A stretch of 22,786 nucleotides of DNA from IMG/VR virus record IMGVR_UViG_2547132415_000008, positions 1 through 22,786 of that record, one strand, 5' to 3'. Positions 2,947 to 19,850 of the stretch are shown piece by piece (position 1 is the stretch's first letter; each line of letters begins with the position of its first letter). Both the position numbers and the translations under genes were made by a program. The notes beneath the pieces are model-generated. The model saw only the letters and a program-made list of their open reading frames with translations, was not told the origin of the DNA and made no database searches. The stretch is from a virus (lineage: Duplodnaviria > Heunggongvirae > Uroviricota > Caudoviricetes).

Positions 2947-4315
2947 TCCGGCTTTACGTAGTTTCTGGACTACGCGGGCACGTAACAAAGTGCTTTATGG
3001 TGGCCGGTCATCGTCAAAATCATGGGATGCCGCTGGCATTGCCATATTTCTGTCGAATAAATACACTCTGCGTTTTTGTTGTGCCCGTCAGATCCAGAAC
3101 AAAATCGAAGAGTCGGTGTATACCCTGCTCAAAATTCAGATAGACAGGTTTGGCCTGCGGCACCGTTTCCGTATTCTGAACAACAAAATCATTAACCGGG
3201 TTACTGGCTCGGAATTTGTTTTTTATGGATTATGGCGCAACATCGAAGAAATTAAGTCACTGGAGGGGATCGATGTGTTGTGGCTGGAAGAAGCCCACGC
3301 ACTGACGGAATACCAGTGGAAAATTCTGGAGCCAACGATCCGTAAAGAGGGGTCGGAATGCTGGTTCATATTCAACCCCGGACTTGTTACTGATTTCGTC
3401 TGGCGCAACTTCGTTGTTGATCCGCCCGAAGGCACTCTCATCCGCAAAATTAACTATGACGAAAATCCGTTTCTGTCTGACACCATGCTTAAGGTTATCG
3501 ACGCGGCGCGACGCCGTGATCCGGATGGTTTTAAACATGTGTATGAGGGCGTTCCGGAGTCTGATGATGATGCGGCAATCATCAAACTGTCCTGGATAGA
3601 AGCCGCAGTGGATGCGCACAAAACGTTAAATTTCGAACCCAGTGGAAGAAAGCGTATTGGCTTTGACGTGGCTGACAGTGGTACAGATAAGTGCGCTAAC
3701 GTTTACCGTCACGGATCCGTTGTTTTCTGGGCCGACGAATGGAAGGCCAAAGAAGATGAATTACTGAAGAGCTGCCAGCGTACTTATCAGGCGGCGCTGG
3801 AGCGTGAAGCAGATATTGTTTACGACTCTATCGGTGTTGGTGCGTCTGCCGGTGCTAAATTCTCTGAAATTAACGCTGACCGGAAGAGCGAGAATGCATA
3901 CGCGAGACGAGTGAATTACCAGAGGTTTAACGCCGGTGCTGGTGTGCATGAGCCAGATGACGAATACAACGGCATCCCCAACAAAGACTTTTTCGCAAAT
4001 CTTAAGGCTCAGGCATGGTGGCTGGTGGCTGACCGTTTCAGAAATACGTTTAACGCCATTAACAACGGAGAACAGTATCCTGTGGATGAGCTGATCAGCA
4101 TAGATTCTAGTTGTCCGTTGCTTGAAAAGCTGAAACTGGAACTGACAACACCTCATCGCGATTTTGACCGTAACGGACGTGTGATGGTCGAAAGTAAAAA
4201 AGACCTCGCAAAACGCGAGATACCGTCACCAAACGTTGCTGACGCATTCATTATGGCCTTCGCGCCAATTGATACATCGCTGGATATCTGGGAACAGCTG
4301 GGGAGACAGGCCTGA
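2894..4315 (+). CDS. Terminase large subunit (ATPase plus nuclease)
   Basis: Walker A-like YGGRSSSKSWD near the N-terminus; acidic nuclease-type motifs downstream; size about 470 aa. Start uncertain (ATG 2894 or 2912; the track ORF begins at 2804), overlapping the terS 3' end. Stop overlaps the portal start (TGATG). Confidence 0.85.
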   Translation: MESVTSMTSTLTSKPTLNPALRSFWTTRARNKVLYGGRSSSKSWDAAGIAIFLSNKYTLRFCCARQIQNKIEESVYTLLKIQIDRFGLRHRFRILNNKIINRVTGSEFVFYGLWRNIEEIKSLEGIDVLWLEEAHALTEYQWKILEPTIRKEGSECWFIFNPGLVTDFVWRNFVVDPPEGTLIRKINYDENPFLSDTMLKVIDAARRRDPDGFKHVYEGVPESDDDAAIIKLSWIEAAVDAHKTLNFEPSGRKRIGFDVADSGTDKCANVYRHGSVVFWADEWKAKEDELLKSCQRTYQAALEREADIVYDSIGVGASAGAKFSEINADRKSENAYARRVNYQRFNAGAGVHEPDDEYNGIPNKDFFANLKAQAWWLVADRFRNTFNAINNGEQYPVDELISIDSSCPLLEKLKLELTTPHRDFDRNGRVMVESKKDLAKREIPSPNVADAFIMAFAPIDTSLDIWEQLGRQA

Positions 4316-13260: not shown

Positions 13261-13457
13261 CGTTTAACAGCCTGCCGGACGGGCTGTCCTACCTTCTCAA
13301 TCCGGTTGACGCCGGGTTAATTCCTTATACAGCACTTAAAGATGGCTCTGTCGATTTGTACGACATTGCTCTCTTAAATGACCATCTGGCGGTAAAAGCG
13401 GATAACCAGCGGCGCATTGAGAAATGGAGAGAGGATAATGAACGCCGAGACTATTAA
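13215..13457 (+). CDS. -1 frameshift extension of the tail assembly chaperone (long form, G-T-like product), 81 codons with no ATG
   Basis: The -1 frame is open from 13215 to TAA at 13455..13457 (AYTPYQHDAEPATGLTFNSLPDGLSYLLNPVDAGLIPYTALKDGSVDLYDIALLNDHLAVKADNQRRIEKWREDNERRDY) and is entered at T TTT TTG (13209..13215). Confidence 0.6.
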   Translation, partial: AYTPYQHDAEPATGLTFNSLPDGLSYLLNPVDAGLIPYTALKDGSVDLYDIALLNDHLAVKADNQRRIEKWREDNERRDY

Positions 13458-15426
13458 AGATTTCCTCGTCTCGCTTGGCTTCAGTGTGGATGATGCAGGA
13501 GCGAAAAAATTCGGTTCTGTCCTCGCCGGTACAACTGCAAATGTCATCAAAATGGGGCTGGCCGTCGAAGGAGCTGCGCTGTCCGTGGTGGCCTTCACGG
13601 CTAAGATCGCCTCCGGTCTGGATAATCTTTACTGGGCGTCACAGCGCACCGGCGCGACAGTCCAGGGAATTCAGTCTATTGGCTATGCGGTTTCGCAGGT
13701 TGGCGGCAGCGTGGACGCTGCGCGATCTTCTCTGGAAAACCTCTCCCGGTTTATTCGTAATAATCCCGGGGCGGAGGGATTTCTGAATCGCCTGGGCGTA
13801 CAGACCCGTGATGCCAGCGGTAACATGCGTGACATGGCCGCTATCTTTACGGGCGTTGGACAGAAACTCAGCAGCATGCCGTATTACCGGGCTAACCAGT
13901 ATGCGCAGATGCTGGGCATTGACGAAAATACCCTTATGGCGATGCGCCGGGGTGTGGGTGGCTTCTCCGGGCAGTACAGCGCAATGGCGAAAGCTATCGG
14001 CTTCAATGCTGACGAGGCGGCCAGAAGCTCCAACAAATTTATGACCTCCCTGCGTGAGTTTAGCGCGATGGCAGGCATGGCCCGTGACAAAATCGGCTCT
14101 AATCTTGCGGGTGGGCTTGCAGGTTCGCTGGACACCCTGCGCCGCCATATCCTGGACAACTTCCCTCGTATCGAGCAGACCCTGACGAAAGCCATAAAAG
14201 GCATTCTGGCGCTCGGGGATATTATCGGGCGGCTGTTCTTCAGACTGATTGAGGGGACATCAGGCCTTATCACCTGGTGGCAATCGCTGGATAAGCAAAC
14301 GCGGGAGTTGATCTCGCTGTTTGGCGCACTGACGATTGCGCTGCGCATTCTGAACAGTACGTTCTGGATGTCGCCGGTTGGCCTCATTACCGCGCTGGCG
14401 GCGGGGATTGCCCTCCTGTGGGAGGACTATCAGACCTGGAAGGAAGGCGGCGACAGCCTGATTGACTGGGGCAAGTGGAAACCGGAGGTCGATGCCGCGC
14501 TGAAGATGGTTCGTGACCTTAAAACGACCGTTAACGACCTGGCGAAAGCGCTGGCGAAACTACTCAATATTGACCCCAAATCATGGTCCCTGAAGTGGGA
14601 TTTCAGCAACTTCATCGACCAGATGGGCGAATTCAGCAAAATGCTGAACATGATCGCCGACCTGCTCAACGCTATCAAAGATGGCCGCTGGGCTGATGCC
14701 GTCAGCATCGGCAAACAGATACTTAATCAGGGCAGCGAAAATCCGTCAGCGATGCCGATGGTTACAGACAGCGCTAACAGTACTGCCGACTGGATTAAAG
14801 AGCACTGGGGATTCGATCCCCGCAGTGTGGGCCGGACGGTACGCGGCTGGTTTGGTGATGATGAGCCGGAACAACATGCACAGGCTACGAAACGAGGAGA
14901 ACGGAATAACAATCCGGGAAACCTTAATTTTGCTGGTCAGGCGGGGGCTTCTCTTGAACGCCCGGGCGGGCGATTTGCCAGATTCGAAACTGCCTTTGAT
15001 GGATTACGGGCTCTTGCTCGTCAGTTAATGTTGTACGCCGGACGGGGAATAAACAGCGTGGAGAAAATTGTCTCTACCTGGGCGCCTGCGTCTGATAATA
15101 ACAACACAACTGCGTATATCAGGGCTGTATCGCAACGACTGGGAGTGGATCCCCGGGCTGCCCTGAATATGAGCGATCCGCAAACCATGTCAGCATTGAT
15201 GAGCAGCATTATCCAGCATGAGAATGGAAGAAATATCTATTCCCGAGAGCTGATTAATAAGGCTGCCGTGGCGGGAATTAGTGGCAAAGTGACAGAGGTT
15301 AACCAGCAAAATACCTACCACATTTACGGTGGCGGAGATCCGCACGCTGTCGGTAATGAGGTTGCACGTCGGCAACAGTCTGCAAATGCTCAGGTCATGC
15401 GAAGTAATCAGGTGAGGGTGGGTTAG
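13438..15426 (+). CDS. Tail tape measure protein
   Basis: ATG 13438 preceded by GGAGAGAGG (the track ORF starts at 13417). 663 aa; a long Ala/Leu/Gly-rich helical protein downstream of the frameshifted chaperone; hydrophobic central segment; distinct C-terminal domain. Confidence 0.75.
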   Translation: MNAETIKDFLVSLGFSVDDAGAKKFGSVLAGTTANVIKMGLAVEGAALSVVAFTAKIASGLDNLYWASQRTGATVQGIQSIGYAVSQVGGSVDAARSSLENLSRFIRNNPGAEGFLNRLGVQTRDASGNMRDMAAIFTGVGQKLSSMPYYRANQYAQMLGIDENTLMAMRRGVGGFSGQYSAMAKAIGFNADEAARSSNKFMTSLREFSAMAGMARDKIGSNLAGGLAGSLDTLRRHILDNFPRIEQTLTKAIKGILALGDIIGRLFFRLIEGTSGLITWWQSLDKQTRELISLFGALTIALRILNSTFWMSPVGLITALAAGIALLWEDYQTWKEGGDSLIDWGKWKPEVDAALKMVRDLKTTVNDLAKALAKLLNIDPKSWSLKWDFSNFIDQMGEFSKMLNMIADLLNAIKDGRWADAVSIGKQILNQGSENPSAMPMVTDSANSTADWIKEHWGFDPRSVGRTVRGWFGDDEPEQHAQATKRGERNNNPGNLNFAGQAGASLERPGGRFARFETAFDGLRALARQLMLYAGRGINSVEKIVSTWAPASDNNNTTAYIRAVSQRLGVDPRAALNMSDPQTMSALMSSIIQHENGRNIYSRELINKAAVAGISGKVTEVNQQNTYHIYGGGDPHAVGNEVARRQQSANAQVMRSNQVRVG

Positions 15427-16013: not shown

Positions 16014-16315
16014 TGACAATTCAGGAAATTCCGCTGACAGCGGACAACCAGCAGTTCAGCATCGTCCTGGGTGGTGTCACCTGGCGGATTAGCATCATAT
16101 GGCGCGATCTGTACTGGATTATGGACCTGCAGAACGACAGAGGGGAGCCGGTAATCTCCGGTATTCCTCTCGTCACTGGTGCTGACCTGCTGGCGCAGTA
16201 CGCCTGTATGGGGCTTGGTTTTAAGCTGGTGGTGGTCTGTGATGACAACACACAGGATTACCCCACAAAAACTGACCTGGGCGGTCGCAGCCATTTACTG
16301 GTATCAACGGAGTAA
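16013..16315 (+). CDS. Small tail/baseplate protein (hypothetical)
   Basis: 100 aa; start overlaps previous stop (TAATG). Confidence 0.45.
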   Translation: MTIQEIPLTADNQQFSIVLGGVTWRISIIWRDLYWIMDLQNDRGEPVISGIPLVTGADLLAQYACMGLGFKLVVVCDDNTQDYPTKTDLGGRSHLLVSTE

Positions 16316-16317
16316 GC

Positions 16318-17379
16318 ATGTCACAGAACTGGATGAGACATTTCGAGCTGCAGCTTGTGGACGGGAACGGTCAGGGAATTGAGCTAAGTGATTTTAAAGT
16401 CACCTTTACGATCGACTGGTTCAACATCAGCAGCGCGTCCCGGGTAGGGACTATCAAAATTTATAACCTCTCGGCAGATACTGTGAACCGAATCACCGGG
16501 CAGGAGTTTTCGAAAGTGCGTCTGATTGCCGGTTACGACGGTATCGCGCCGGAGGTGTCGGCAAGCGACGTCGGGACCGTGCGGGAAGTTGACGCGGCGG
16601 ACGTGGGTCAGAGTGATGGCCGCAACTACGGACTGATTTTCAGCGGTGAAATTCGCTACTCGGTCACAGGAAAAGACAGTCCGGTTGATTCCTACGTCCT
16701 GATTCAGGCAGCAGATACTGATCTGGCTTTTGCCACCAGTATAACCTCACAGACGCTGGCTGCCGGTTACACGGTCGCTGATGTAAACCGTGCGCTGATG
16801 AAAGACTTCGAAGCCAAAGGCGCGACCGAAGGCCTGACGCCTGAAATGCCTGCTACTGTATTCCCCCGGGGGCGGGTACTCTTTGGCATGACGCGGCATC
16901 TAATGGATAACGTAGCCGGGCAATGTGGCGCAACATGGCAATTCGTGGACGGTCAGCGCCAGATGGTGGCGAATAACGAATATGTTCATGAAGCGATTGT
17001 GCTCAACAGCGCTACCGGGCTTATTGGCATGCCGCAGCAGACTATCGGTAACGGCGTAAACGTCCGCGCGCTTATTAATCCGAACATCCGGGTTAACGGA
17101 CTTATTCAGCTGGATCAGGCTTCCGTGTATCGTACCGCCTTGTCGAACAACGATATTGCGATGGCTGGTGGTCAGATCACCGACCAGAACACGGATGGAA
17201 ATATCACGCTAAGCGGCACCACATCGCAGCCTGCCAGCATCGCAACGGATGGCGTTTATATTGTGCGCGGGATTATGTACACTGGCGACACAAGGGGCCA
17301 GGCGTGGTACATGGATATGATGTGCGAAGCGCGTGGCGCGGCGGATCTGTATACGCGATCGGCTTTGCAAAGGGGATGA
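16318..17379 (+). CDS. Baseplate hub / tail protein (hypothetical)
   Basis: 353 aa; RBS GGAG upstream; position after tape measure and small tail proteins. Confidence 0.5.
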   Translation: MSQNWMRHFELQLVDGNGQGIELSDFKVTFTIDWFNISSASRVGTIKIYNLSADTVNRITGQEFSKVRLIAGYDGIAPEVSASDVGTVREVDAADVGQSDGRNYGLIFSGEIRYSVTGKDSPVDSYVLIQAADTDLAFATSITSQTLAAGYTVADVNRALMKDFEAKGATEGLTPEMPATVFPRGRVLFGMTRHLMDNVAGQCGATWQFVDGQRQMVANNEYVHEAIVLNSATGLIGMPQQTIGNGVNVRALINPNIRVNGLIQLDQASVYRTALSNNDIAMAGGQITDQNTDGNITLSGTTSQPASIATDGVYIVRGIMYTGDTRGQAWYMDMMCEARGAADLYTRSALQRG

Positions 17380-17382
17380 GCA

Positions 17383-17724
17383 ATGAGGGGTATTATTTTT
17401 CTGTTAGCTGTCTTTTCTGCGTGCAGCGCGTGGGCGGATGGCTTCACGGTTAAATGCGGTGGCTACACTATGGTTGCAAACCAGGGCGAGTTATCGACTA
17501 TCAACGGTGAAAGAGTTACCTCTCAAAAAATCACCGAACTGGGTACCAATGGTTTGAAAGTAGACATGGGGCTTATGCCTGCCAAAGACGGTAACAACTA
17601 CGGCTTTGAATACATTCGTCGCCCTGGTACCGAAACGCGATTCCTGAATATCCAGCTTCTGCAGAACAGCATGGATGCGCCGAAAATCATCGGATCTTTC
17701 CCTTGTAAAAAAGTGGCTGGGTGA
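17383..17724 (+). CDS. Small secreted protein or lipoprotein with N-terminal signal peptide (moron candidate)
   Basis: 113 aa; MRGIIFLLAVFSACSAWADG has a hydrophobic core, a lipobox-like FSAC and an AWA-DG signal peptidase I site. Two further Cys in the mature part. Not expected for a virion tail component. Confidence 0.6.
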   Translation: MRGIIFLLAVFSACSAWADGFTVKCGGYTMVANQGELSTINGERVTSQKITELGTNGLKVDMGLMPAKDGNNYGFEYIRRPGTETRFLNIQLLQNSMDAPKIIGSFPCKKVAG

Positions 17725-17750
17725 AGGTAACCTGAAATTCGTAACGCCTG

Positions 17751-17789
17751 AAAAACAACAAAATGTGCTCTAAAAACTGTTGTTTTTTG
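17751..17789 (+). terminator. AT-rich hairpin with T-run, weak candidate terminator upstream of the cassette
   Basis: AAAAACAACA (17751..17760) pairs with TGTTGTTTTT (17778..17787); loop is 17 nt; T-run follows. Weak. Confidence 0.3.
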
Positions 17790-17809
17790 AGACGAGCGAT
17801 TACACTGCA

Positions 17810-17850
17810 CTGACTTTTTGATGGTGGATTGCCATCGATATGCTACTTCA
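17810..17850 (+). promoter_or_regulatory. Possible cassette promoter (TTGATG -35-like at 17818..17823, TATGCT -10-like at 17839..17844)
   Basis: Hexamers read by eye; spacing is 15 bp, which is suboptimal. Low confidence. Confidence 0.2.
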
Positions 17851-17873
17851 TTAAAGCCAGGAATAACTAAAAC

Positions 17874-18605
17874 ATGAGTTTAGCGCAGCCAAAATCAGGA
17901 GAACTGTTAGATCTTCTGACTCCTTCATTAACTAAGGGTGAAAACCTTCTGAGTGAGTTTGAAATCCATCGAATCATTCGTGAAGCGAAGAAACTACCTG
18001 AACGTTATCAGGGGCTATCAATTGAAGGCTTAGCTAAGCTTGTTCTTGGTGAAATAGATGAAGGATGTTCACTCTGTGAGCGGGGGTTGAGAATAGCGCC
18101 TAACGATCCAGTTTCTTTTTGTAACTATACGATTGCGCTGCGTAACTTAGGTTTGCATGCTCGCCAGTATGTGATGATTCAGAAAGCATCTGATTCACTT
18201 AATCCAACGATATTGGCTGAGGTTGCTACAATTTCTGCATACTGGGTTGATATCGATTTGCTTGAAAAGGTGATGCCGATGCTAACTGCAATGGAAGTAC
18301 CGCGCCCTGAAGATATGGGCAAATGGTATGACACGCTCAATTATCTGCATACCCAAAAAGATCATGCTCAGGAGCTAAAAACTATTGGGCGGCTCATGAT
18401 GAACGTTGCAGAAAAGTACCGCGCTCGTCTTGCTGGCGCTCATGCTTTTTATGTAATGTCAGAACTTGATACGCTGTTCGTTGAAGTCAAAACAGACGAT
18501 CCAGTGCTTCTTTCGCAGATGAATAATGCCTTGGCTGATGAGATTATTATTGCGGGGCTTGCGGATTCAGAATGCGTCGGATGCTTTGAAGCCGGGGAAC
18601 TCTAA
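17874..18605 (+). CDS. Cassette gene A: uncharacterised 243-aa protein, helical, TPR-like segment and two CxxC motifs
   Basis: ATG 17874 with AGGAATAA upstream. Lower GC than flanking tail genes by eye. CSLC near residue 64 and CVGC near residue 232; segment GLRIAPNDPVSFCNYTIALRNLGLHARQYVMIQKA looks TPR-like. Stop overlaps gene B start (TAATG). Confidence 0.7.
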   Translation: MSLAQPKSGELLDLLTPSLTKGENLLSEFEIHRIIREAKKLPERYQGLSIEGLAKLVLGEIDEGCSLCERGLRIAPNDPVSFCNYTIALRNLGLHARQYVMIQKASDSLNPTILAEVATISAYWVDIDLLEKVMPMLTAMEVPRPEDMGKWYDTLNYLHTQKDHAQELKTIGRLMMNVAEKYRARLAGAHAFYVMSELDTLFVEVKTDDPVLLSQMNNALADEIIIAGLADSECVGCFEAGEL

Positions 18606-19033
18606 TGTCGGTTGAGCATACCTGTTTTCTTGAATTGGCTAAGCATTCCCTGGCTCTAAACGGTGAGATGTGGACGAGAAATGCTATTAGCCGAGCATAC
18701 TATGGTATGTACCATTCCGCCTTACGGATCACCAACAATCTGGTACCGACCGCTACACAAGATGGTGAAAAACTAAAAGGTGGAGTTCACATGCGAGTCT
18801 ATACGGCCTTTTGTAGTGGTGAGGCAGCTGCACTTAACGATGTTGATGTTAACGCAGTAAAGAAAATCGGCGTTAAACTGAAAATGACGCATGCCCAACG
18901 TGTTAATTCTGATTACAAGCTTGAGCGGAAAATCAACCGGATTACCGCGAGAAGTGTAATTCTGGATGCGGAAGAGGTCGATGCAATCGTTAATCAATTA
19001 CTGAAGATTGGTGATGACTCGTTAACTGCATAA
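18605..19033 (+). CDS. Cassette gene B: uncharacterised 142-aa protein with HEPN-like R-x6-H motif (RAYYGMYH)
   Basis: Translationally coupled to gene A; low GC by eye; followed 22 nt later by a strong intrinsic terminator. Motif RAYYGMYHSALRI resembles the HEPN helix signature from memory; unverified. Confidence 0.7.
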   Translation: MSVEHTCFLELAKHSLALNGEMWTRNAISRAYYGMYHSALRITNNLVPTATQDGEKLKGGVHMRVYTAFCSGEAAALNDVDVNAVKKIGVKLKMTHAQRVNSDYKLERKINRITARSVILDAEEVDAIVNQLLKIGDDSLTA

Positions 19034-19054
19034 GCTGAAATTTCTCAAAATTCA

Positions 19055-19078
19055 AACCCGCCACTTGGCGGGTTTTTT
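19055..19078 (+). terminator. Rho-independent terminator closing the cassette
   Basis: AACCCGCC (19055..19062), loop ACTT, GGCGGGTT (19067..19074): 8-bp GC-rich stem followed by TTTT. Confidence 0.8.
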
Positions 19079-19097
19079 GCTTTCTGGAGCCTACTAA

Positions 19098-19850
19098 ATG
19101 GCAGTATCTGACCAGACCCGCAGCGGCGACCTTGCCGAAACATTTAAATCTGAACGGGAAACAACAAAGAACCAGATCCGTGTCGCCTTGCCTGGCATTA
19201 TTCAGTCATTCGATCCTGACGCGGTGACGGCGGTTGTGCAGCCAGCTATCCGGTCAGTTGAAAAGGATAACGACGGTAACCGCATTACCAAAAATTACCC
19301 ATTGCTGGTGGATGTGCCAGTGGTATTCCCGCGCGGCGGAGGCTGTACGTTGACTTTTCCGGTAAAAGCTGGGGATGAGTGTCTTGTCGTTTTTGCCGAT
19401 CGTTGTATTGATTTCTGGTGGCAGAGCGGCGGGATACAGGAGACGGTTGATGACAGAATGCATGATTTATCGGATGCGTTTTGTATTGTCGGTCCCCAGT
19501 CGCAGGCTAGGAAGATTAGCGGTATTAATACCAGTGCCACACAGTTGCGTAGTGACGACGGCAGCACCTATTTTGAGCTTAATCCTGATACCAGGAAAAT
19601 TAAAATTGTCGCTCCGGGGGGGCTTGATGTGGTTGCCCCCCTGGCTGATTTTTCTGAGAAAGTAACCATTCATGGCCTGTTAACCTGGATGGGGGGCATG
19701 GTGGGGTCTGTGGTTTCTGGTGTGGCTTCAAAAATCACTGGTGCTGTTGAGTTTTTGGGGAGCGTGAAGGCTAACGGCAAGCCAATCGATGATACGCACA
19801 CTCATGGCGGTGTTCAGCGCGGTGGAAGCAATACCGATGGGGTAAACTGA
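19098..19850 (+). CDS. Baseplate central spike / assembly protein (gpV-like)
   Basis: 250 aa; RBS GGAG 8 nt upstream; followed by coupled baseplate wedge genes; Gly-rich C-terminus. Confidence 0.55.
   Translation: MAVSDQTRSGDLAETFKSERETTKNQIRVALPGIIQSFDPDAVTAVVQPAIRSVEKDNDGNRITKNYPLLVDVPVVFPRGGGCTLTFPVKAGDECLVVFADRCIDFWWQSGGIQETVDDRMHDLSDAFCIVGPQSQARKISGINTSATQLRSDDGSTYFELNPDTRKIKIVAPGGLDVVAPLADFSEKVTIHGLLTWMGGMVGSVVSGVASKITGAVEFLGSVKANGKPIDDTHTHGGVQRGGSNTDGVN

Follow-up and report, generated by a model that had tools for sequence, protein, structure and literature searches.

Why should a temperate phage encode a small exported protein in the middle of its tail gene cluster? The question is raised by a gene, here called sm, at positions 17383..17724 on the plus strand of the virus record IMGVR_UViG_2547132415_000008, of which the whole stretch of 22,786 nucleotides was analysed and is referred to as the window. 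The window spans the late region of a SEN34-type phage (genus Brunovirus and relatives), a lambdoid temperate myophage resident in E. coli as a prophage. A first-pass annotation of this DNA had proposed that sm is an exported moron, likened to the Cor and Llp proteins and part of a single accessory islet. Our analysis leads, with high confidence, to a different picture. The gene encodes a Sec-exported precursor, cut by signal peptidase I (SPase I) after Ala18 to give a soluble periplasmic eight-stranded barrel of ~10 kDa, probably closed by a Cys25-Cys108 bond. It is a conserved, non-structural late gene of the tail operon, placed directly after the baseplate hub gene (slot 1) in SEN34-like temperate myophages of Enterobacterales, and not an independent moron. 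As for its function, we tentatively favour a periplasmic factor that blocks phage entry.

The open reading frame (ORF) of sm is real, and it is closely tied to the gene before it. It runs from an ATG at 17383 to a TGA at 17722-17724 and encodes 113 amino acids; the hub stop codon lies at 17377-17379, only 3 nt ahead of the sm ATG, and in relatives sm abuts or overlaps that stop codon. The Shine-Dalgarno sequence of sm lies inside the hub coding sequence, which implies that sm is co-translated with the late tail operon. The elements of the gene are the following.

17370..17376, plus strand: Shine-Dalgarno sequence AAGGGGA, within the hub coding sequence and 6 nt ahead of the sm ATG, read from the sequence.
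17383..17724, plus strand: sm gene, 113-aa precursor, member of phrog_3443, a family of unknown function.
17383..17436, plus strand: signal peptide, residues 1-18, MRGIIFLLAVFSACSAWA, recognised from conservation counts, diverse homologues and a hydrophobicity comparison.
17437..17721, plus strand: mature domain of 95 aa, 10.3 kDa and pI 8.7, a predicted eight-stranded beta-barrel.
17455..17457, plus strand: codon of Cys25, in the first beta-strand, invariant in 92 of 92 homologues and in both further alignments (A1, A2).
17704..17706, plus strand: codon of Cys108, in the last beta-strand, invariant in the alignments, with the strand assigned from an AlphaFold2 model.

The N-terminus of the product, MRGIIFLLAVFSAC-SAWA/DG, has the layout of an export signal. 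An arginine at position 2 is followed by a hydrophobic core from I4 to A13, by FSAC at residues 11-14, and by A16-W17-A18 ahead of D19-G20. These are the attributes of a Sec/SPase I secretory protein, namely a positively charged n-region, an h-region some 7-15 residues long, and small amino acids at positions -3 and -1. In a hydropathy screen of the 28 main plus-strand genes of the window, plausible hydrophobic N-termini were found for sm, the endolysin (925-1422) and the i-spanin (1407-1811) only; a fourth match, the terminase ORF, arises from a doubtful upstream TTG start. All of the full-length sm homologues examined (more than 100, down to 26% identity) keep the lysine or arginine of the n-region, the hydrophobic core and the small-x-small site. 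The signal sequence itself drifts freely among them, so that it is conserved as a feature and not as a sequence. Likewise, in 20 homologues (28-65% identity) obtained by translating other genomes, the signal sequences are unrelated but keep the same layout, and both cysteines are invariant. This persistence of the signal in the face of sequence drift, together with the invariant cysteines, argues for a genuine SPase I signal peptide and a periplasmic disulfide. The first-pass annotation had predicted export from a signal sequence with an AWA-DG site, and the residue layout and the conservation of that site bear it out: in an alignment of 92 members, A16 is kept in 89 and A18 in all.

The same annotation had also pointed to FSAC as a lipobox-like motif. 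The motif is there in the window allele (VFSAC), but its cysteine is not conserved, as Cys14 occurs in 6 of the 92 members and is replaced by F, S or Y elsewhere; across the family there is thus no lipobox, [LVI][ASTVI][GAS]C, with the conserved cysteine on which signal peptidase II (SPase II) acts in lipoproteins. The PROSITE lipobox rule allows the cysteine at positions 15-35, and Cys14 falls one residue short of this range. Cys25 and Cys108 are each present in 92 of 92 members, and the mature N-terminus is conserved as G-[FY]-T-x-x-C-G. Since the A-x-A site and the two mature cysteines are kept and Cys14 is not, the signal at the level of the family is of the SPase I type. For the window allele taken alone, processing by SPase II at Cys14 is a formal possibility that its residues leave open. 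Most likely, judging from the sequences, the product is a soluble periplasmic protein cut by SPase I after A18 and not a lipoprotein of the Cor/Llp type.

The mature domain is best described through its predicted fold. AlphaFold2, run on an alignment of 58 sequences, returned a model with pLDDT 85.2 and pTM 0.69, in which an N-terminal helix, the signal peptide, is followed by eight beta-strands. With Cys25 in the first and Cys108 in the last strand of the model, a disulfide between the two probably closes the barrel. The most conserved motifs of the mature domain are INGExVTSQK, DGNxYGF and LNVQLLxxxMDAP. Fold comparison gave scores of about 8 for avidins, 7.9 for the Cap15 barrel, 7.1 for Brucella PhiA, 6.9 for the type VI secretion system (T6SS) immunity protein BtaiB and 6.4-6.8 for PliC. 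The modelled barrel falls in a fold class common among periplasmic binders and inhibitors, and the fold does not identify a function.

Sequence searches place sm in a narrow family of its own. In PHROGs the sole match is phrog_3443 (E 2.1e-47). Searches of Pfam, NCBIfam and PADLOC, and of PDB with both the single sequence and a profile, gave no match, the PADLOC defence-protein models yielding 0 families at E up to 0.01; a search of BFVD was empty as well. In a collection of 5.8 billion proteins, 380 clusters were retrieved with the single sequence and 725 with the profile, and all named matches belong to Enterobacterales, are called 'hypothetical' or 'secreted protein', and carry no Pfam domain. 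Clustering at 50% leaves only 34 representatives, which marks the family as narrow. Within this range the gene is widespread in Salmonella, Klebsiella and E. coli; of 5426 complete E. coli genomes, 288 gave a detectable match to its DNA, a query running from hub to spike matched 336 E. coli prophage copies, and a contig collection indexes one Salmonella allele in 1175 of its blocks. The sm protein was the subject of no study met in literature searches that covered SEN34, Mulock, exclusion and the relevant locus tags and accessions, and no virion proteomics was found for any phage that carries it. We regard sm as a phage-encoded exported accessory protein of the tail cluster, belonging to an uncharacterised family.

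Some database entries touch on this survey. Annotated starts cut the signal peptides of two proteins: SEN34_20 (locus L002, 4001-4342) is annotated from 4109 while the full ORF begins with a TTG at 4001, and gp67 of phage yong1 (L142, 3556-4032) is annotated from 3622 while the full ORF begins with an ATG at 3556. Hub copies 92-97% identical (L016, L052) are labelled 'Chryseobacterium sp. 18061' and 'Bacillus sp.' (the latter a 255-bp contig), names implausible for an enterobacterial prophage and probably due to contamination or mislabelling. The entry 'Elizabethkingia phage EKP1' (H79) has a hub copy 46.5% identical and a 44-nt stretch of DNA 93% identical.

Whether sm is an independently acquired moron or a regular member of the tail operon can be read from its neighbourhood in relatives, for which the two flanking baseplate genes are needed.

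16318..17379, plus strand: baseplate hub, 353 aa, E217-gp41-like (Pfam E217_GP41; PHROG 196 'baseplate hub'), directly upstream of sm.
19098..19850, plus strand: baseplate spike (profile match E 5e-44, GpV Apex motif at the C-terminus; RefSeq 'membrane-puncturing spike protein').

The hub protein was used as a probe and gave 45 loci from species-level genomes, with hub identities of 44-97%, of which 39 were assessable. A full-length sm homologue lies within a few nucleotides of the hub stop in 33 of the 39 (~85%), at hub identities of about 48-97% to the window hub. The hub-spike junction is empty in three loci (L042, L049, L053), two retain only the last 18-25 sm codons behind another exported gene, and one has a lipoprotein instead. 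Seven loci show the order hub-sm-spike with no cargo at all. With sm as the probe, the hub is immediately upstream in 79 of 80 viral contigs, the exception being a tandem duplication of the hub 3' end together with sm; between sm and the spike lie 65 to 1397 nt. Throughout the viral contigs and genome loci surveyed, sm was never found free-standing and occurs only beside a hub gene of the SEN34 type.

No transcription signals of its own were detected either. A scan of 16300-19200 found no sigma-70-like promoter on the plus strand and no terminator directly after sm, and Rfam searches with RNA folding of the intergenic regions returned sub-threshold terminator-like matches at 19003-19090, one stray snoRNA match and no unusual structure. 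The base composition of sm (GC 48%, third-position GC (GC3) 0.53) is intermediate between the upstream tail genes and the cargo that follows. With a gene for the Q antiterminator at the start of the window and no promoter of its own, sm is most simply a late gene read with the tail genes. The usual marks of a moron, an own promoter and terminator, patchy spread and deviant GC, are thus not those of sm, and the earlier designation has to be given up. In related prophages, where presence or absence was the check proposed with that designation, sm is missing from some loci, and its distribution is conserved and not patchy.

The gene is nonetheless dispensable for the particle. In phage Pam3 the plug (gp18), hub (gp19) and spike (gp20) are encoded by consecutive genes, and the solved baseplate contains six baseplate proteins (PMC11633184). 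In Providencia phage PSTCR3, a sewage isolate, the hub and spike genes overlap with no gene between them. The adjacency of hub and spike in Pam3, PSTCR3 and the three empty loci indicates that sm is non-structural, and the Pam3/E217-type structural set holds no counterpart of it among the virion proteins. Here the earlier reasoning that sm is no structural part of the tail stands, a virion role being very unlikely. As a separate observation, Burkholderia phage Magia, whose hub is 31% identical, encodes a 123-aa signal-peptide protein, gp21, between hub and spike (L144, 3457-3828, minus strand). Genes for exported proteins may have a general tendency to settle between hub and spike.

Immediately downstream of sm the conserved operon is interrupted by a slot for variable cargo.

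About 17716..19053, plus strand: variable cargo slot, defined by junction mapping, GC content and cargo diversity.
19054..19075, plus strand: G+C-rich terminator hairpin with T run, conserved in relatives, the right junction of the slot just ahead of the spike.

DNA homology between the window and its relatives stops at ~17712-17716, in the last sm codons, and resumes at 19054. In the window the slot holds a 243-aa gene (17874-18605, weak TPR match) and a 142-aa gene (18605-19033, weak HEPN_IX match, E 0.0094). Its GC is 44% and GC3 0.38-0.41, against 53-54% and 0.61 for the upstream tape measure, Dit, plug and hub genes. No promoter was found for this two-gene cassette in the plus-strand scan of 16300-19200, and the Q-modified late transcription complex presumably reads through the hairpin. 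Relatives carry HEPN-like pairs, a PhdYeFM-Fic toxin-antitoxin pair, DUF4282 membrane proteins, signal-anchored proteins, one protein with a 'Sie-like' PHROG match, or nothing, so that sm neighbours a site of envelope and defence cargo. The slot is a defence or cargo hotspot within the baseplate operon, and the cassette at 17874-19033, being patchy, low in GC and set ahead of the right-junction terminator, is a true moron. It does not travel with sm. Loci L010 and L011 have the same cassette (88-94% identity) beside an sm only 58-62% identical. In Salmonella, copies of a single identical sm allele precede either two genes with the sizes of this cassette (243 and 142 aa) or the PhdYeFM-Fic pair. 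Cassette and sm are thus unlinked. The proposal that 17383..19080 forms one accessory islet fails on this ground and on the position of the homology break.

If sm is a backbone gene, its alleles are unusually restless. Among loci with hubs at least 92% identical to that of the window, sm identity is 52, 52, 52, 54, 54, 58, 62, 63, 65, 67, 75, 96, 97 and 99%; in the same hub class L017 keeps only a 3' remnant of sm and L008 lacks it. The plug, Dit, spike and W genes can reach 98-100% identity beside divergent sm alleles. The allele of the 689R2 type is 54% identical to that of the window, and a Salmonella type is 27% identical. Pairs from the same allele lineage (51 in all) give a median dN/dS of 0.15, so that selection on the mature domain is purifying there.

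The gene can also be exchanged for unrelated ones. Mutually homologous lipoproteins of a domain Y take its place in L008, L027 and L028, and in L017 and in Hafnia phage yong1, whose hub is 77% identical, the replacement is a domain Z that stands alone behind a signal peptide. At the N-terminus of the L028 protein there is in addition a domain X, found again in lipoproteins (P0147, P0286, P0297, P0301, P0303; 284-296 aa) that end in an sm barrel; of these, P0147 follows the hub directly, as does its relative P0302, and P0304 reads as X fused to Z. The shared lipoprotein domain X thus yields the combinations X-sm, X-Y and X-Z. As all of these modules are exported, slot 1, when filled, encodes an envelope-exported protein of interchangeable modules.

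Copies of sm are stacked in 3 of 144 loci. Serratia aquatilis (L038, 5092-7745, NZ_CP173186.1) has four intact paralogues and one frameshifted copy in tandem after the hub, each with a signal peptide, followed by an IS256-type transposase and no spike gene, as in a decaying prophage. L126 (2063-3342) carries a tandem duplication of hub 3' end plus sm with two different alleles, and L121 (3457-3747) a degraded second copy; these two duplications suggest that alleles are exchanged by recombination anchored, on the left, in the hub 3' end. The homology of the window to L008 and L012 stops at 17325-17346, inside the hub 3' end.

A partner for the barrel was sought in the tail itself. Residues ~490-625 of the tape measure protein (TMP), encoded at 14884-15292, form a lysozyme-fold domain related to the catalytic domain of the phage Enc34 endolysin (PDB 7q47, E 1.5e-13). 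This C-terminal domain is also related to Gp29 of PDB 9vvp. Close relatives carry an unrelated or an SLT domain at this place, which means that the tape measure, too, exchanges its lytic domain. The presence of the Enc34-like domain showed no association with sm, and sm or X-sm is present, too, where the tape measure of a relative is of the SLT type. Over 16 loci, the Spearman rho of co-variation with sm was 0.77 for the hub, 0.64 for the spike and 0.46 for the TMP C-terminus, values that linkage alone would give.

What, then, could the protein do? We would describe it, as a possibility short of probable, as a factor that acts in the periplasm to block entry or to confer something like immunity, a superinfection exclusion broadly understood. 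Produced late, alongside the tail proteins through Q antitermination, and exported to the periplasm, it would there meet the tail tip of an infecting phage once the outer membrane is punctured. It might bind a component of the tail tip, or a component of the envelope that the tail needs, and the infected or lysogenic cell and its kin would be protected from further injections; different alleles and modules would mean different specificities. The reasons for this choice are the export of the protein, its dispensability, its turnover under purifying selection, the swapping of modules with lipoprotein anchors, the stacking, the retention in a decaying prophage and the defence-rich neighbourhood. 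Several points weigh against it. There is no homology to characterised exclusion proteins in the sequence searches of Pfam, NCBIfam, PADLOC and PDB. The negative promoter scan leaves expression in the lysogen, the usual setting of exclusion, unsupported, and a soluble protein of the periplasm is in no position to mask a receptor on the cell surface. In addition, no partner emerged: YP3 combines an sm 96% identical with a different TMP C-domain, L005 combines a TMP C-domain 98% identical with an sm of 54%, and the sm alleles do not track the spike either. A bolder form, drawn by analogy and rather unlikely, would make slot 1 a polymorphic 'periplasmic immunity' locus, whose modules (sm, Y, Z, soluble or tethered through X) each neutralise the tail tips of particular contractile-tailed phages or tailocins. 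If so, allele swapping and stacking, with five copies in one Serratia genome, would set who infects whom among Enterobacterales lysogens.

Other readings have to be held against the entry block. A benefit to the host unrelated to phages, such as lysogenic conversion through a periplasmic binder of a small ligand or a host antimicrobial, would suit the avidin- or lipocalin-like barrel, a common ligand-binding scaffold, and it would suit the retention and amplification of sm in the degraded Serratia prophage as well as its wide spread in enteric genomes. We consider it unlikely, since sm lies solely beside the SEN34-type hub, lacks a detectable promoter of its own, and shows an extreme allelic turnover and a replacement by unrelated exported modules that suit a conflict locus better than a housekeeping benefit. 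The barrel could instead inhibit a hydrolase, binding the lysozyme-like TMP C-terminus of an incoming tail or protecting its producer from lysis from without; the models here are T4 Sp, which acts against gp5, and PliC, MliC and PhiA, which act against lysozymes. The Enc34-like match of the window TMP speaks for this idea, and late co-expression with tail genes would suit protection while progeny build up. It is demoted to a decidedly unlikely reading by the lack of association between sm and the TMP lysin: the allele and the lysin type vary independently, SLT-type relatives have the gene too, and the fold match is unspecific, with avidins and designed barrels outscoring PliC. Nor does sm qualify as a member of the MliC/PliC family; the motifs that we take to be characteristic of it were not seen in the sm sequence by eye.

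Two further explanations can be set aside almost entirely. An outer-membrane lipoprotein that blocks the phage receptor, as do Cor of phi80, N15 and T1 and Llp of T5, would account for the lipobox-like VFSAC of the window allele, and true lipoproteins do occupy slot 1 in some relatives (LTSC, LSGC, X-sm fusions). The rarity of Cys14 beside an invariant A-x-A site and the lack of any profile or fold link to a named family in the searches made render it highly improbable, and the Cor/Llp-like role first suggested for sm, which had only phrog_3443 as a match, goes with it. Least probable is that sm is a genuine component of the baseplate or of tail assembly with a hydrophobic N-terminus that is no secretion signal. 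The gene does lie between two baseplate genes, is translationally coupled to the hub and is conserved in ~85% of lineages. These points yield to the canonical cleavable signal with its cysteine pair, to the lack of sm in PSTCR3, a complete isolated phage with the same baseplate, to the adjacent hub and spike and six baseplate proteins of Pam3, to the replacement of sm by unrelated exported proteins, and to loci in which sm is 54% identical beside neighbours that are 97-99% identical. Whatever likelihood the listed readings leave over belongs to something else.

Known systems offer partial parallels to the proposed entry block. Spackle of phage T4 (Sp, gene 61.3) is a periplasmic protein of ~10 kDa, Sec-exported, cut by SPase I, encoded by a myophage and active on the incoming tail tip; it is helical, made early, and targets the gp5 lysozyme. 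The sm product resembles it in location and size and differs in being a predicted beta-barrel, in belonging to the late operon and in having alleles that do not co-vary with the tail lysin, and the searches gave no sequence link between them. HK97 gp15, an inner-membrane superinfection-exclusion moron, is an independent transcription unit of patchy distribution. Like sm it is an accessory gene with an envelope-targeted product, set within the tail cluster of a lambdoid temperate phage, whereas sm is soluble, has no detected promoter and is conserved in most lineages. Cor and Llp, lipoproteins that block FhuA, are like sm small exported proteins encoded beside tail or receptor-binding genes; sm departs from them in its unconserved lipobox and in the missing profile or fold link. 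PliC, PhiA and T6SS immunity proteins are similar in fold class and polymorphism, and sm is a member of none of these groups. The likeness to T6SS immunity is an analogy only, as no cognate toxin-immunity pairing was detected for sm and arrays are confined to the few loci described.

The remainder of the window fits a complete late region. Near-identical copies lie in E. coli chromosomes, for example in strain SM107 at 99.5%, and related phages are Yersinia phage YP3, Escherichia phages vB_EcoM-689R2, -606R2 and -611R5, Salmonella phage SEN34, and Klebsiella phages Mulock and GZ7. The mapped features outside the sm locus are these.

12-344: gene of the Q antiterminator, C-terminal part.
436-591: tRNA-Asn (GTT) and tRNA-Thr (TGT), between the Q antiterminator and the holin.
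710-925: holin.
925-1422: SAR-type (signal-arrest-release) endolysin.
1407-1811: i-spanin.
Frame 1612-1974: embedded o-spanin with lipobox LSGC, its start probably near 1696.
13417-15426: tape measure.

The lysis cassette is complete (710-1974), and a lysis role for sm was rejected, since holin, SAR endolysin, i-spanin and embedded o-spanin are already present. The window also holds terminase, portal and capsid genes, a sheath-like protein, tube and chaperone, these last three assigned through family matches in related loci. A Dit-like baseplate protein and a Pam3-gp18-like plug lie between the tape measure and the hub, and a sheath-initiator-like protein and Baseplate_J follow 3' of the spike.

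Whatever its function, sm can now be annotated as encoding a secreted protein, not a lipoprotein, and as lying outside the downstream defence cassette, and the exact site of cargo insertion (about 17716 to 19053) in a tail-operon defence hotspot is defined. E. coli, Salmonella, Klebsiella, Serratia, Yersinia and Pantoea commonly carry SEN34-like prophages, nearly all of which encode sm. If the periplasmic entry block is true, sm would stand for an exclusion family that is both new and very widespread, directed at the moment when the tail tip crosses the periplasm, a step of infection that is poorly understood. The series of sm alleles would in that case be a natural map of specificity, and the presence of sm would bear on the host range of therapeutic phages in Klebsiella and E. 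coli.

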